From positions 4,192,001 to 4,256,000 of the forward strand of contig OZ242029.1 of NCBI GenBank assembly GCA_965205015.1: 64,000 nt of DNA, given 5' to 3'. The notes beneath the pieces were generated by a model. The model saw only the letters and a program-made list of their open reading frames with translations, had not been told where the DNA came from and made no database searches. Below, in pieces: positions 188 through 39,404 of the stretch. The DNA is from Candidatus Poribacteria bacterium (GTDB lineage: Bacteria > Poribacteria > WGA-4E > WGA-3G). The position numbers were made by a program, and so were the translations under genes. Numbering within the stretch: the stretch's first letter is position 1; each line of letters opens with the position of its first letter.

Positions 188-2041
188 ATGTTCTTAGAGA
201 AGATTAACAGTCCCGCGGATTTGAAAAACCTTGAACTCGACGAGCTCAAAGTGCTCGCTGAAGAGATGCGCGCTTATCTATTATCGGTGCTCTCTGAACA
301 TCCCGGCCATTTTGCACCGAACTTCGGGACGATTGAACTCGCAATAGCGTTGCACAAAGTGTACGATACACCGCGCGACAAGGTTATCTGGGACATCGGG
401 CATCAGGCGTATCCGCATAAACTGCTCACCGGAAGACGGGAATCGTTCCCAACGCTCCGACAAAGTGGGGGTATCAGCGGGTTCCTCAGTAGAGCCGAAA
501 GTGAATATGATGTCTTTGGCGCGGGGCACTCCAGCACTTCTATCGCTGCGGCATTGGGTGTTGCCACCGCCAGAGACCTCATCAATGAGCATTACAAAGT
601 CGTTGCCGTCATCGGAGATGGTGGGTTAACAGGCGGAATGGCATTTGAGGCGTTGAACGCTGCGGGTGACTTTAGAAACGATATGACCGTCATTCTCAAC
701 GACAATAACATGTCTATTTCAGCGACTGTCGGGGCGTTCTCTAAACATTTTCACAAACTCACGAGTTCACCCCAGTACAACCTCCTCCGCTCTGGAGCGA
801 AGGGGTTGATGAACATGATTTCAGAAGATGCCAAGCAGATAGCACGGAAGATTGAGGCGTCATTGAAACCGGGCACACTGTTTGAAGAATTCGGGTTCCG
901 CTACTTCGGTCCGCTTGATGGTAACGATTTAGAGGCGTTGATACCTGTCTTGACAGGCATCCGCAGTCTCACAGGTCCTATTCTATTGCATATCGTAACC
1001 GAGAAAGGGCGCGGCTATACGCCAGCAGAGGAAGATCCAGTTGGATTCTATAGTGTCAGTGGTCCCTTCAACCTGAAAACAGGAAAGACAACCAAACCGA
1101 AACCTAAAACCCCGACGTATACGGAAGTGTTCAGCAAAACGTTGATTGAATTAGCGAAACGCGATGCAAGGATCGTGGGAGTGACGGCAGCGATGCTTGG
1201 CGGGACGGGGTTGGATAAGTTTGCGAACGCATTCCCGAGTCGATGCTTTGACATCGGCTTGGCGGAACAGTGTGCGGTTACGTTCGCGGGTGGGCTTGCG
1301 ACACAAGGCATGCGTCCCGTTGCCGCTATCTATTCCACCTTCCTCCAGCGGAGTTACGATCAGGTCTTACACGACGTGTGCATCCAAAACCTGCCGGTTG
1401 TTTTCGCATTGGATAGAGGCGGACTTGTGGGCGCAGATGGTCCAACACATCACGGCGTTTTCGATTTCGCATTCCTCCGCTCCATTCCAAACATGGTCGT
1501 CATGGCACCCAAAGATGAGAACGAACTCCAGGCTATGGTGAAGACAGCTGTCGTGTATCAAGAGGGTCCCATTGCGTTCCGTTACCCGCGCGGCACTGGG
1601 GTCGGTGTGAAAATGGCAGCGGAACCGCAGGCACTCCCGATTGGAAAAAGTGAGATCGTTAGAGAGGGTGAGGATGTACTCGTGATTGCCATTGGCAACC
1701 GCGTCTATCCTGCGCTTGAAGCAGCGCAAACGTTAGCCGATGCTGGCGTCTCAGCGGCGGTTATTAACGCACGGTTTGTCAAGCCTCTGGACACTGCGAC
1801 AATTCTACCACTTGCAGAACGGATCGGTAAGGTAATTACGATTGAAGATGGTGTGATAATGGGCGGTTTCGGGAGTGCTGTTTTGGAAGCACTCGCTGGA
1901 GCGGGTCTCAAAGATGTGCAGATCAGAAATCTCGGTATCCCCGATGAATTTATTGAACACGGTGATGTCCAGCACCTTTATGCCCTGTGTCAATGTGATG
2001 CCGATGCCGTTGTCCGAACCGCACAAGCGATGCTACAATAG
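188..2041 (+). CDS. dxs: 1-deoxy-D-xylulose-5-phosphate synthase
   Basis: GHQAYPHKLLTGR, GHSSTS, TPP motif GDG...NDN, DRGGLVGADGPTHHG; 617 aa. Confidence 0.97.
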   Translation: MFLEKINSPADLKNLELDELKVLAEEMRAYLLSVLSEHPGHFAPNFGTIELAIALHKVYDTPRDKVIWDIGHQAYPHKLLTGRRESFPTLRQSGGISGFLSRAESEYDVFGAGHSSTSIAAALGVATARDLINEHYKVVAVIGDGGLTGGMAFEALNAAGDFRNDMTVILNDNNMSISATVGAFSKHFHKLTSSPQYNLLRSGAKGLMNMISEDAKQIARKIEASLKPGTLFEEFGFRYFGPLDGNDLEALIPVLTGIRSLTGPILLHIVTEKGRGYTPAEEDPVGFYSVSGPFNLKTGKTTKPKPKTPTYTEVFSKTLIELAKRDARIVGVTAAMLGGTGLDKFANAFPSRCFDIGLAEQCAVTFAGGLATQGMRPVAAIYSTFLQRSYDQVLHDVCIQNLPVVFALDRGGLVGADGPTHHGVFDFAFLRSIPNMVVMAPKDENELQAMVKTAVVYQEGPIAFRYPRGTGVGVKMAAEPQALPIGKSEIVREGEDVLVIAIGNRVYPALEAAQTLADAGVSAAVINARFVKPLDTATILPLAERIGKVITIEDGVIMGGFGSAVLEALAGAGLKDVQIRNLGIPDEFIEHGDVQHLYALCQCDADAVVRTAQAMLQ

Positions 2042-35894: not shown

Positions 35895-37448
35895 TTATCC
35901 TTCCGAACGGATTTGGATTAACTTATTTACGGCGTGGATGTAAGCCCGTGCGCTCGCTTCGATGATGTCGGTGCTCGCACCGTGTCCGGTGATGATGTGT
36001 CCGTTGTCTTGGACCTTCAATGAGACCTCACCGATAGCGTCTTCCCCTTCGGTTACGGAACGAATCTGATAGTCGATGAGGTTTAGTTGAATGTCGACAA
36101 TTTGACTGATCGCTTTAAACGCCGCATCTACAGGTCCGTCGCCGGTTGAGGCTCTCTCAACGACACCCTCTTCCGTCCGAACACCAACGGTCGTTGTCGG
36201 TGAGATTCTCGTTCCACTGACAATTTGGATATAATCCAACTCAAAAACAGCAGGAATGGCGCGAATCTCATCGCTCATGATCGCCTCAAGATCGGCATCC
36301 TGCACGGCTTTCTTCTTATCAGCAACCCGCAAAAACCTTTCATAGACTTTTTCCAGCTGATCCGCGTCCACTTCATAGCCGAGTTCGCTGAGTCGGTGTC
36401 TGAGAGCATTACGTCCGGAACGTGGGCTGAGAATCAGTTGACTCTCTTTCCATCCGATCTCTTTCGGATCAATGATTTCAAAAGTCACACGCGATTTGAT
36501 GATACCGTCTTGATGGATGCCCGAACTGTGTGCGAATGCGTTCGCACCGACAATCGCTTTGTTCGGTTGAACGGCAATACCCATCGTCCGACTCACACGC
36601 CTGCTGATCGGAACGATTTCTTTGGCGTTAATATCGGTATAATATGCTTTAAAGTAATCTCGGCGGGTTCGGATCGCCATAACGACCTCTTCCAACGAAG
36701 TATTACCAGCCCGTTCTCCGAGTCCATTGATTGTGCACTCGACCTGCCGTGCGCCCTGCTCAACTGCTATAAGACTGTTCGCTACTGCTAAACCGAGGTC
36801 GTTATGGCAGTGTACACTAATAATGGCATCGTTAACATTTGGGACATTCTCCATGATGCCCTTAATTAAATCGCCAAACTCCGTTGGCACTGTCCATCCG
36901 ACGGTTTCCGGGATATTGATGACGGTCGCCCCCGCAGCGATCGTCGCTTCGACGACTTCATAAAGGAAGGCTAATTCCGTCCGTCCCGCGTCCATTGGTG
37001 AAAATTCGACATTCGCATCCGGGTGTCCTTCGCACAAACGTTTGGCATAGGCGACCGCGTCGGTTGCCATTTGCAATGTATCTTCAGGGGTTGTCCGTGT
37101 AATGCGTCCCATGTGAATTGGTGAAGTTCCGACAAAAGTGTGGATACGGGCGCGTGGTGCATCCTTAATAGCTGCCCATGCGGCAGTAATATCTTTCTCC
37201 ACAACGCGAGAGAGGGCACAGATTTCCGGTCCTTCAACTTCGTTGGCTATCCGTTTGACCGCATCGAAATCCCCCGGCGACGAAATTGGGAATCCGGCTT
37301 CAATGATATCAACATTTAATTTCGCGAGGTGCTTGGCAATCTCCAGTTTTTCCTCAATACCGAGTGCAGCACCGGGGGTCTGTTCAGCATCGCGAAGCGT
37401 TGTATCGAAAATATAGACTTTCTGCGGGTTGTTTTGAAAATCGTCCAA
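35895..37448 (-). CDS. leuA: 2-isopropylmalate synthase
   Basis: [25 protein letters not shown], regulatory domain GDGPVDA. Confidence 0.95.
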
Positions 37449-37467
37449 AGCTCTATTCCTCCAATTT

Positions 37468-37601
37468 AGAGTCGTCAGTTATCAGTTGCCAGTCGTCGGT
37501 TAAGAGTACCCGTGTAACAAGCGGTTCCTTAGGATTGGAAGCACGCCAAGAAGGGGGAATGTGTTGCAAAAACCTCTTAACTGAAAACCGAAAACTATTC
37601 C
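37468..37601. repeat. Palindromic repeat, GTCAGTT/AACTGA family
   Basis: gtcgtcagttatcagttg..cggttaagag ... ctcttaactgaaaaccgaaaactattc. Confidence 0.85.
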
Positions 37602-38627
37602 CTACATTTCACGACCAACGGCAATCGCTATTGATTTCAGTTCCTGCATGAGGGTCTCGAATTGATCAGGGAACAGCGACTGTGCACCATCTCCTGTCAT
37701 TGAATGATCTGGATCGTGATGGACTTCAAGTAACAGTCCATCTGCGCCTGCCGCCACAGATGCCTTTGTCATATCACAGACGAGACTCCGGATACCCGTG
37801 CCGTGGCTCGGATCCACAATAATAGGCAGATGGCTCAATTCGTGAATAACAGGTACTGCGTTCAAATCAAGGGTATTACGGGTATGCGTTTCAAAAGTCC
37901 GAATGCCCCGCTCGCAGAGAATGACATCGGGGTTTCCTTCTGCGAGAATATATTCAGCGGCGAGGAGCCATTCTTCAATTGTTGCCGACATTCCGCGTTT
38001 GAGGATGACAGGCTTATTTGCTCGTCCCACTTCGCGCAACAGATAGAAATTCGTCATGTTCCGCGTGCCGAGTTGAAACATATCTGTATATTCACCAACG
38101 AGTTCAACTTCGTGTGGTGTCATGACCTCAGTGACGATGCCGAGTCCTGTTTCGGCTTTCGCTGCTTCCAGCATCTTAAGAGCCTCTTTACCGTAGCCTT
38201 GGAAACTATAAGGTCCGGTTCTCGGTTTAAAAGCGCCGCCTCTGATGAAACTCGCACCGGCTTTTCGGACCTGTTGCGCAATGGTTACGATCTGTTCCGT
38301 GCTTTCTACTGCGCACGGACCGGCAATGACGGGTACCTGCCGTCCACCAATTTTCGTGTCGTTGACTGCAATAACCGTCGGTTCATCCCGAAACTCACGG
38401 CTTGCCAATTTGAACGGTGCCGTAATTGGCATCGTCCGATCGACCCCCGACATTGACTCTATCGGAATATCACCAAGCAATGTTTTATCTCCTATGACAC
38501 CGATGACAGTGTGTCTCTCACCGACTGAGACTTGTGCTTTCAAGCCTGCATCTTCGATCCGTTTTACAACAGCGTTGACATCTGCTTGTGTCGCATCGGT
38601 CTTGGTAACAATTACCATCCTTTTCAA
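37602..38627 (-). CDS. aroF: DAHP synthase type I-beta with N-terminal regulatory domain
   Basis: [36 protein letters not shown]; GGAGG RBS before TTG. Confidence 0.95.
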
Positions 38628-38644
38628 CTACCTCCGCCTTTTTA

Positions 38645-38730
38645 ATAGTTTTCAGTCTTCAGTCTTCAGTTTTCAGTTAAGAGGTTTTCGTTTAAAAGTT
38701 CCCTCTTTAACTGATAACTGACAACCGATG
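38645..38730. repeat. Palindromic repeat, GTCAGTT/AACTGA family
   Basis: ttttcagttaagagg ... cctctttaactgataactgacaaccg. Confidence 0.85.
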
Positions 38731-38807
38731 AGCGATAACCACTCTTCCGATGAATGACAACCAATACACCGAAAGATAATTCTGTCTGTCGCAAATGAAA
38801 CTCGGTT

Positions 38808-38848
38808 AAAAAAAATACCCAACATTGAAATCTTTTTCAACGCCGGGT
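38808..38848 (-). terminator. Intrinsic terminator (attenuator) upstream of aroF
   Basis: mRNA ACCCGGCGUUGAAA-AAGA-UUUCAAUGUUGGGU-A-U8: 14-bp stem with three G-U pairs. Confidence 0.85.
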
Positions 38849-38900
38849 GGTGATACTGGAATCGGTTAATCTTTGTAATATGGGCATTACCTGCGAACTT

Positions 38901-39083
38901 TCACCACCTGTCGTTGCTGTACAAATATAAGTACAGGTACAGATACAATCCAAAAAGGCCTGTGCTTGTAAGTCGCGTAAAAAGGGACCCTGCGTAGGAG
39001 GAAGCGTTCCCTAAAGAGATTGAAACAGCACGGACGTGAGGTATCTGTATTGTGGTAGTATTACGTAGAAGTGTTCGCATCAT
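38901..39083 (-). CDS. Putative attenuator leader peptide, 60 aa, with (Leu-Tyr)5
   Basis: AGGA RBS then ATGATG; ends GLFGLYLYLYLYLYSNDRW*; synonymous codon variation across the LY pairs. Confidence 0.75.
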   Translation of the reverse strand: MMRTLLRNTTTIQIPHVRAVSISLGNASSYAGSLFTRLTSTGLFGLYLYLYLYLYSNDRW

Positions 39084-39273
39084 CAATTTCCTAAAAATTA
39101 GGGCACTCAAAAAATCGACCCTAATGCGCTGAAAGCAAATGCCGCTATCAAAGCGGACCTCTTTGTAACCTAAGACGTTATTTCTGGAAAAGTGTTTATG
39201 CTTTTTGATATAGGCACGCGTTTTGTCATCCAAAATCCCATGCCCTATTATAATACCTGACCAATTTTATTAT

Positions 39274-39302
39274 ATAATAACACATTTTTTTTCGCAAGTC
39301 AA
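39274..39302 (-). promoter_or_regulatory. Sigma70-like promoter for leader-aroF-leuA
   Basis: TTGACT-17 nt-TATTAT with TG extension. Confidence 0.6.
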
Positions 39303-39404
39303 ATTTCTTTTTTCTCCAACCCTAGGTAAAGTGTCAATTTCTCAGCCGATCAAATAGCGTTGACTCCTAAATTAAGGTGTGTTAATATAGGAAAAGAGGA
39401 CAGT

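Follow-up and report, generated by a model that had tools for sequence, protein, structure and literature searches.

The stretch of DNA analysed here (hereafter the window) comprises 64,000 nucleotides of a Candidatus Poribacteria genome (contig OZ242029.1, positions 4,192,001 to 4,256,000 of the forward strand). Its minus strand carries, in this order, a short leader open reading frame (ORF) that ends in five Leu-Tyr (LY) codon pairs, an intrinsic terminator, and the genes aroF and leuA. Judging by the conservation and covariation of this sequence among relatives, the leader and the terminator very likely form a genuine leader-peptide attenuator, in which a translating ribosome would control transcription. 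We further infer, with moderate confidence, that this attenuator senses Tyr and also Leu. To our knowledge, the multivalent attenuators described so far are each confined to amino acids of a single connected pathway. A dual Leu/Tyr attenuator of an aroF-leuA operon had been proposed from the letters of the window alone (hereafter the original prediction); in this study, the proposal was followed up by sequence comparison.

Fifteen related Poribacteria loci (L001-L015) were used. Together with the window, they gave an alignment of 16 sequences (A1). Gene copies were counted in three complete Poribacteria chromosomes (G001-G003), which were reached via L002, L005, and L013.

Results

Leader open reading frame and peptide family

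The leader ORF (38901-39083, minus strand) has 60 codons, from an ATG at 39083 to a TGA at 38903-38901. The Shine-Dalgarno sequence AGGA, read from the sequence, lies at 39089-39092 (minus strand), and AGGAAC or GAGGAAC sits 6-9 nt upstream of the leader start in the relatives. The second ATG of the window, at 39080, is the start that is aligned in the relatives (59 codons). The peptide starts MMRTLLRNTTT and ends LFGLYLYLYLYLYSNDRW; its full 60 residues are MMRTLLRNTTTIQIPHVRAVSISLGNASSYAGSLFTRLTSTGLFGLYLYLYLYLYSNDRW. The ORF, its AGGA, and its five LY pairs written in mixed codons agree letter for letter with the original prediction.

The leader frame is open in all 16 sequences, in which it takes 11 different lengths (46, 48, 49, 53, 57, 58, 60, 61, 64, 65, and 85 aa). 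At all of these lengths, the conserved N-terminus M-R/Q-T-L-E-x-N-T (MRTLERNTI) and the C-terminus share one frame, and the N-terminal motif is kept throughout the family despite synonymous changes in its codons. The leader of L011 is 24 residues longer because a 12-residue unit (AQLASKNLLLKS) is present in extra copies, all in frame. A frame that stays constant despite 11 lengths is strong evidence that the leader is translated. In all 15 related loci, the frame stops at or just past the sequence that pairs with the terminator arm.

A profile search returned 125 related protein clusters, which are unnamed or hypothetical and belong to Poribacteria wherever they are labelled. Among the 120 clusters listed, 119 end in ...YLYLY.Y...RW. 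Residue counts given below refer to these 119 clusters, which are related to each other and hence not independent. No Pfam domain was matched in the leader peptide. The leader DNA is present in one copy per genome, only at the aroF-leuA locus, without paralogous copies.

Terminator and antiterminator

The intrinsic terminator (38808-38848, minus strand) consists of a 14-pair stem (38848-38817) with the loop AAGA, followed by an A and eight U residues (38815-38808). In the 16-sequence alignment, 94.2% of the cells of this helix (3:4) are paired, compared with 28-49% when the arms are slid, and three pairs are changed on both sides. RNAalifold predicted the terminator independently (hairpin energy, -17.4 kcal/mol), and the consensus scan found 3 terminator-like sites in the region vs 0.9 ± 1.0 in shuffled sequences. 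The terminator of the original prediction, a 14-bp stem plus U8, was thus recovered by consensus scan, covariation, and RNAalifold alike.

The competing helix (2:3) is formed by segment 2 (CAACGACAGGUGGUGA, 38901-38916, minus strand), the 5' strand of the antiterminator, which takes in the stop codon and most of the six codons before it, and by segment 3 (UCACCACCCGGCGUUG, 38838-38853, minus strand), its 3' strand. The original prediction placed an 8-nt antiterminator here, GGTGGTGA (38908-38901) with TCACCACC (38853-38846). Both strands are located there and covary, and the helix is 16 nt long (38916-38901/38853-38838), not 8, with 14 pairs and two single mismatches (duplex energy, -19.6 kcal/mol). 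As also predicted, segment 3 overlaps the 5' arm of the terminator, sharing 11 of its 14 nt.

Helix 2:3 is paired in 91.1% of the cells of the 16-sequence alignment (slid arms, 29-66%). Six pairs, in 10 cells, are changed on both sides, and none of 500 shuffles equalled this. The third base of the Asp codon (GAC/GAT) covaries with G/A in segment 3, giving CG in 3 and UA in 9 sequences, which is probably a single evolutionary event. Among the distant loci, L012 and L014 pair GGGGGU with ACCCCC, and L015 has a different terminator, the 3' arm of which recurs as a matching copy within the leader ORF. The stop codon lies within segment 2 in 14 of the 16 sequences; the leaders of L013 and L015 end elsewhere. 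Because the antiterminator is built from the last six codons and the stop codon, the position of the ribosome would decide the fold.

The ribosome geometry was modelled by folding the nascent RNA before the 3' arm of the terminator exists. With the A site on the second or third Tyr codon, the nascent RNA is predicted to form the full 2:3 helix (-21.6 kcal/mol). Once the A site has moved on to the last Tyr codon, only six pairs of 2:3 are left (-8.2 kcal/mol), and a ribosome at the stop codon leaves no 2:3 pairing at all. Without a ribosome, 2:3 forms. A small hairpin, CUGUAC-N8-GUACAG (38917-38936, minus strand), was predicted within the LY run by RNAalifold (88.5% of the cells paired); it is a candidate pause hairpin for RNA polymerase.

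A long-range pairing between segment 2 and the conserved codons at the N-terminal end, possible as a duplex of 6-7 pairs in most sequences, was considered and rejected, as it mostly fails to exceed shuffles: in 11 of the 16 sequences, 30-110 of 200 shuffles were as good as this duplex, and in the other 5 at most 11 were. Interior windows of the ORF often pair better. No leader, T-box, or riboswitch family of Rfam was matched at E values up to 10 between 37000 and 41000, where the search returned three chance-level microRNA rows. The same library does detect a T-box upstream of ilvB in Poribacteria.

Control codons

The control codons are five Leu-Tyr pairs (38919-38948, minus strand), reading TTG TAT, CTG TAC, CTG TAC, TTA TAT, and TTG TAC. 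This (LY)x5 run is the sole dipeptide repeat of at least four units in the six frames of the 64-kb window. Across these leaders, 4-6 Tyr codons alternate with 2-5 Leu codons among the last 15 codons, and at least one LY dipeptide stands near the C-terminus in all 16 leaders, the four distant ones included.

Both residues are conserved in the 119 clusters. Counted from the C-terminus, Tyr is retained at -6 (116/119), -8 (119/119), -10 (117/119), and -12 (118/119), and Leu at -7 (92/119), -9 (111/119), -11 (113/119), and -13 (106/119). Leu is mostly replaced by Phe or Val. Synonymous Leu codons are used at -13 (CTG, TTG, CTC, and CTT) and at -9 (TTA and CTT). At these two positions, it is the identity of the codon family that is preserved rather than the letters. 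In the aligned aroF upstream regions, LY codons conserved with synonymous Leu changes thus stand together with covarying 3:4 and 2:3 stems, in line with the original prediction.

Leaders upstream of the same type of 3-deoxy-D-arabino-heptulosonate 7-phosphate (DAHP) synthase were also inspected at loci of other phyla that lack leuA (L056, L071, L069, and L047). These leaders are rich in Tyr or Phe and show no Leu alternation.

The probable aroF-leuA operon

aroF (37602-38627, minus strand) encodes a type I-beta DAHP synthase with an N-terminal ferredoxin-like regulatory domain, as assigned by family-model scores (PF00793, 254 bits; PF18152, 72.6 bits; NF006421, 480 bits with a cut-off of 335). 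leuA (35895-37448, minus strand) encodes a 2-isopropylmalate synthase with a LeuA allosteric domain (NF002086, 751 bits with a cut-off of 532; TIGR00973, 697.6 bits with a cut-off of 598.7). Assignment of the latter as a citramalate synthase was rejected, since that model gives only 218.9 bits vs a cut-off of 450. These scores agree with the original prediction, in which the two genes were taken to encode the first committed enzymes of aromatic and leucine synthesis.

The DAHP synthase of the window is 92-96% identical to those of the metagenome-assembled genomes of Poribacteria at L001-L011 and 76-88% identical to those of L012-L015. Leader ORF, terminator, aroF, and leuA follow each other in identical order in all 15 related Poribacteria loci. 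In each of them, leuA lies 3' of aroF on the same strand, with gaps of 21-281 nt (21 nt in L011). No leuA match was found beside DAHP synthase in the fetched flanks (up to 4 kb) of 65 loci of other phyla.

Each of the three complete Poribacteria chromosomes has one match above the leuA cut-off (TIGR00973), plus a weak paralogue of 220-231 bits, and one PF00793 match, the aroF product. Type II DAHP synthase (PF01474) has no match in these chromosomes, and no 3-deoxy-D-manno-octulosonate (KDO) 8-phosphate synthase of the PF00793 family is among the matches in them, DAHP synthase being the sole one. With a single aroF and a single true leuA in each of these three genomes, the operon holds the sole entry enzymes of the aromatic pathway and of the leucine branch.

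The spacer between aroF and leuA varies in length and content, and no conserved promoter, leader, or U-tract terminator was found in it in the Poribacteria loci. Heptamer and palindromic repeats (of the CAGTTAT/ACTGAAG type, with long inverted arms) occupy the spacers at 38640-38800 and 37449-37601 (minus strand). The repeats upstream of aroF and upstream of leuA vary from genome to genome.

Other amino acid sensors in Poribacteria

A second leader of mixed codons was found in Poribacteria. It has 33 codons, His and Trp codons among them, and is followed by a U-tract terminator; it lies upstream of hisI-trpE (L091:3760-3861, minus strand; L092:513-614, plus strand). The leader reads ...NHWHWWH... 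in G002 and ...NHWHRW... in G001, and the genes after it are hisI (PF01502) and trpE (TIGR00564, above cut-off). By eye, the end of this ORF can pair with the 5' side of the terminator. A cobalamin riboswitch (RF00174, 90.7 bits; L092:121-353, minus strand) lies on the opposite strand, upstream of the region of this leader.

A T-box (RF00230, cut-off 93 bits) with a terminator precedes ilvB at L089:1168-1420 (109.7 bits) and L090:1108-1403 (103.6 bits). By its position, its specifier looks like GUC (Val). The ilvB T-box implies that sensing of tRNA charge is generally used in these genomes and that the Leu-specific leuA needs its own sensor. By eye, G001 and G002 showed no leader ORF with a terminator directly upstream of leuC, trpE itself, tyrA, or pheA. 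The small gene that precedes pheA contains an in-frame TGA (..YIYP*PQD..; L095, approximately 850-1090, plus strand), at the same place in L096. This TGA may be a selenocysteine or read-through site.

Promoter and 5' untranslated region

Two overlapping promoter matches, each with 10 of 12 consensus positions, were found upstream of the leader by consensus scan: TTGACT-17 nt-TATTAT, with TG before the -10 box (39274-39302, minus strand), and TTGCGA-17 nt-TATAAT (39269-39297, minus strand). The promoter block AAAGAAATTTGACTTG...TGTGTTATTATATAA is common to L001-L011, with the TATCATATA form in L009 and L011. Of the distant loci, L013 has a variant block and L012 and L014 have other promoter-like boxes; a scripted search gave no promoter box of this kind in L015.

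The 5' untranslated region (UTR) contains the motif TAAAC..TTTTT..AATAACGTCTTA (39171-39198, minus strand), which was seen by eye in 14 of 15 aligned sequences, including the distant L012-L014. In L007, whose 5' UTR is only about 60 nt long, the motif is largely missing. It stands outside the classical attenuator model and could be a protein-binding site or a second layer of control. A small hairpin, CCGC...GCGG (39142-39156, minus strand), was also found by consensus scan in this region. Its arms covary by eye (GTGC/GCAC in L003 and CGTGC/GCACG in L006), and it is missing in L005 and L007-L011.

Transcription

RNA data were available as contigs of two sponge metatranscriptome runs, which derive from relatives and hold 6-10% of the sampled words. 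Contigs of the relatives cover aroF and leuA, with the reservation that DNA contamination of such libraries is possible. One contig of 495 nt spans the terminator (38778-38927), and another runs from the aroF end straight into the beginning of leuA without a spacer, as in the relatives with short spacers; contigs of this kind cannot prove a single transcript, nor do they reveal transcript levels or 3' ends. Contig cover is almost zero at 38946-39400 in both runs, which carries no weight. The contigs are compatible with read-through and with co-transcription of aroF and leuA, support them weakly, and prove neither.

Discussion

Based on these features, the attenuator would work as follows. Transcription would start at the strong promoter, and the leader of 46-85 codons would be translated. 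When charged tRNA-Tyr and tRNA-Leu are both ample, the ribosome would reach the stop codon and mask segment 2; the terminator would then fold, and transcription would stop at the U-tract near 38808. When either tRNA is poorly charged, the ribosome would stall within the LY run and leave segment 2 free to pair with segment 3 as soon as the latter is made. The 2:3 helix would block the terminator, and RNA polymerase would enter aroF and leuA. The leader would in this way be an OR gate for two unrelated pathways, and specificity could be restored afterwards by feedback inhibition of each enzyme via its own regulatory domain. In other organisms, the ferredoxin-like and LeuA allosteric domains mediate such inhibition.

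Several observations weigh against this proposal, some of them against the attenuator as such and others against its response to Leu. The leader is 46-85 residues long, far above the approximately 14-32 residues of classical leader peptides, and this length and the conserved N-terminus are unaccounted for by the attenuator model. The protector helix (1:2) of the original prediction, in which segment 1 (ACCUGU, 38933-38938, minus strand) may pair with ACAGGU (38911-38906), lies at the predicted coordinates and is compatible with the alignment (90.4% of the cells paired; slid arms, 25-59%; alternative register, 75.6%). In the 16-sequence alignment, however, it has no two-sided change and does no better than shuffles, and even with no ribosome on the RNA its duplex of -10.1 kcal/mol is outcompeted by 2:3. 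Super-attenuation, as in the classical model, is thus unsupported, and untranslated RNA may read through instead of super-attenuating. This would differ from the E. coli trp model. Furthermore, at equilibrium no other fold has a lower energy than the complete terminator, wherever the ribosome is placed in the model. Since the terminator always wins at equilibrium, the switch must be kinetic, as it is in classical attenuators. Finally, a promoter-like match (9/12) lies inside the terminator (38840-38812), and this match and the spacer repeats make some independent transcription of aroF or leuA conceivable.

The objections that concern Leu are those on which the best surviving rival is built. 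According to this rival, the attenuator is aromatic and responds to Tyr only, the Leu codons are spacers that serve RNA pairing or hydrophobicity, and leuA rides along. We consider this unlikely, without dismissing it. Leu is retained less strictly than Tyr (77-95% vs 97-100% at the control positions), so it is for Leu that the dual control of the original prediction is less firmly grounded. Elsewhere in the leaders, Leu makes up 15.7% and Tyr 1.4%; Leu being common there, its presence in the control run is less surprising. The four distant loci carry only one or two LY pairs. At -7, different residues occur (L, V, F, W, M, or P) while the third base is G in 11 of 12 close sequences; as this fixed G pairs in the small hairpin, the codon appears to be constrained mainly as RNA. 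Along the same line, YUG-UAC yields UGUAC palindromes, and the CUG at -11 lies in the conserved hairpin. Tyr-rich leaders upstream of DAHP synthase recur in other phyla, and the ferredoxin-domain DAHP synthase of Thermotoga is inhibited by Tyr.

A response to Tyr alone does not readily fit the remaining evidence. Leu survives synonymous change at -13 and -9, where the conserved pairing does not need it. The comparator leaders without leuA in other phyla do not alternate with Leu, which favours real sensing of Leu. leuA is fixed 3' of aroF across the phylum, and it is the sole leuA. Dual sensing is further supported by the second mixed leader, since the His/Trp leader before hisI-trpE follows the same plan and occurs in the same Poribacteria genomes. 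That two operons of mixed content should each have a leader with exactly both cognate codons is hard to blame on chance. The proposed dual control therefore stands on the conservation of both codons, on the phylum-wide aroF-leuA pair, and on the His/Trp parallel.

The leader could also act through its peptide. As a TnaC-like nascent-peptide arrest or sensor leader, it would pause at the stop codon on a free amino acid by means of the conserved N-terminus and the Arg-Trp-UGA end, so that segment 2 would be covered and termination enforced; a peptide acting in trans is a variant of this explanation. The family-wide N-terminal motif, the length of the leader, and the Arg and Trp found as the last residues in all 119 clusters could all be understood in this way, but the end of the leader has another explanation. 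AGG-UGG-UGA is the core of the antiterminator and covaries with segment 3 in L012-L015, and the constancy of the RW-stop end is already explained because these codons are needed for RNA pairing. The leaders of L013 and L015 end elsewhere, and the leader matches no family. A peptide function in place of the dual attenuator is thus very unlikely. It is also improbable that the leader is a nascent-chain sensor, an arrest peptide, or a trans-acting peptide on top of the two-amino-acid OR gate. If it were, one switch would respond both to the tRNA charging of two unrelated pathways and to a further signal carried by the peptide, and it would be a design rule of Poribacteria to place mixed-codon leaders before mixed operons.

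There is hardly any likelihood that the leader is an ordinary small-protein gene with its own terminator, with aroF-leuA transcribed from a separate downstream promoter and the alternative pairing incidental: the conservation of the peptide over its whole length, its public annotation as a hypothetical protein, the promoter-like match that overlaps the terminator, and the repeat elements upstream of aroF in many loci would suit such a gene, but compensatory changes preserve the helix that joins the end of the ORF to the arm of the terminator, the interval from the U-tract to the ribosome-binding site of aroF measures only about 45 nt and lacks promoter boxes in L003, L005, and L007, and the leader is single in each genome, always at this locus.

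The dual Leu/Tyr attenuator can be compared with known systems. The leaders of E. coli thrL, ilvGMEDA, and ilvBN are multivalent leader-peptide attenuators. Like the Poribacteria leader, they interleave codons for several amino acids, any shortage of which leads to read-through, and they rely on competition between terminator and antiterminator. The amino acids concerned belong to one connected pathway in E. coli (Thr to Ile; Ile, Leu, and Val), whereas Leu and Tyr are unconnected. Moreover, the E. coli leaders have approximately 20-30 codons, in contrast to 46-85 in Poribacteria, and the Poribacteria operon, unlike those of E. coli, itself joins the first enzymes of both pathways. Within Poribacteria, the hisI-trpE leader is alike in preceding a mixed-pathway operon with both cognate codons mixed; it differs in being shorter (33 codons), in its amino acids, and in having no sequence similarity to the Leu/Tyr leader.

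Leader peptides before the individual genes have been described in Corynebacterium glutamicum. According to PMC11802643, which cites Neshat et al. (2014), the aroR leader (Phe-Tyr-Phe) upstream of aroF responds to limitation of Phe, not of Tyr; leaders of leuA and trp are likewise described there (PMC4046766; PMC11802643). The aroR leader resembles the Poribacteria leader as an aromatic-codon leader peptide with an attenuator before a DAHP synthase gene, but it has no Leu codons, has no leuA in its operon, and belongs to another phylum. Leader ORFs with terminators were also seen before DAHP synthase in the comparator loci: in the Acidobacteriota L056 and L071, a leader ending ...CYSYRYYYYYRG and a terminator lie approximately 120-40 nt upstream of the DAHP synthase start, and Phe-rich leaders with terminators precede DAHP synthase in L069 and L047, a Desulfuromonas and a Clostridia locus.

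The leaders of enterobacterial leu operons carry runs of Leu codons. Similar runs in leuA or leu leaders are reported for Actinobacteria (PMC1262725), and four Leu codons are described for the C. glutamicum leuA leader (PMC4046766). Stalling of the ribosome at Leu codons sets leuA expression in these leaders, as it would in Poribacteria; they have consecutive Leu codons directly before leuA, whereas Leu alternates with Tyr in the Poribacteria leader and leuA is the second gene. Control of E. coli aroF-tyrA rests mainly on the TyrR repressor. Control of this operon that depends on Tyr-tRNA has also been reported (Camakaris et al., 1980, cited in PMC2659441), and shares with the Poribacteria proposal the idea of a DAHP synthase gene under the influence of charged tRNA-Tyr; the text of PMC2659441, as far as accessible, mentions no comparable Tyr-run leader. 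PMC2965389 states that, as of 2010, its authors were aware of leader-peptide systems in Proteobacteria and Actinobacteria only; that paper itself adds Firmicutes.

Among the literature matches listed, judged largely from titles and the opening lines of abstracts, none describes a Leu/Tyr leader, an aroF-leuA operon, or an attenuator in Poribacteria; subscription papers and supplementary tables, such as those of PMC2965389, might list similar cases. The novelty suggested in the original prediction consequently holds for the Leu/Tyr leader, which is absent from the literature searched, and does not extend to leaders upstream of DAHP synthase, already known from C. glutamicum aroR.

The Leu/Tyr leader would extend leader-peptide attenuation to an uncultivated phylum of sponge symbionts. 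The element is small and self-contained, so that the symbiont need not be grown to test it: E. coli or a cell-free system would serve. The codons that the leader appears to count belong to two unrelated amino acids, and a textbook mechanism would be wired to two pathways. The leader would offer a natural test of how leader codons and operon content evolve and of how OR-gate attenuation is combined with enzyme feedback. Together with the His/Trp case, it suggests that small mixed operons are put together in Poribacteria and that each receives a leader of matching codons.

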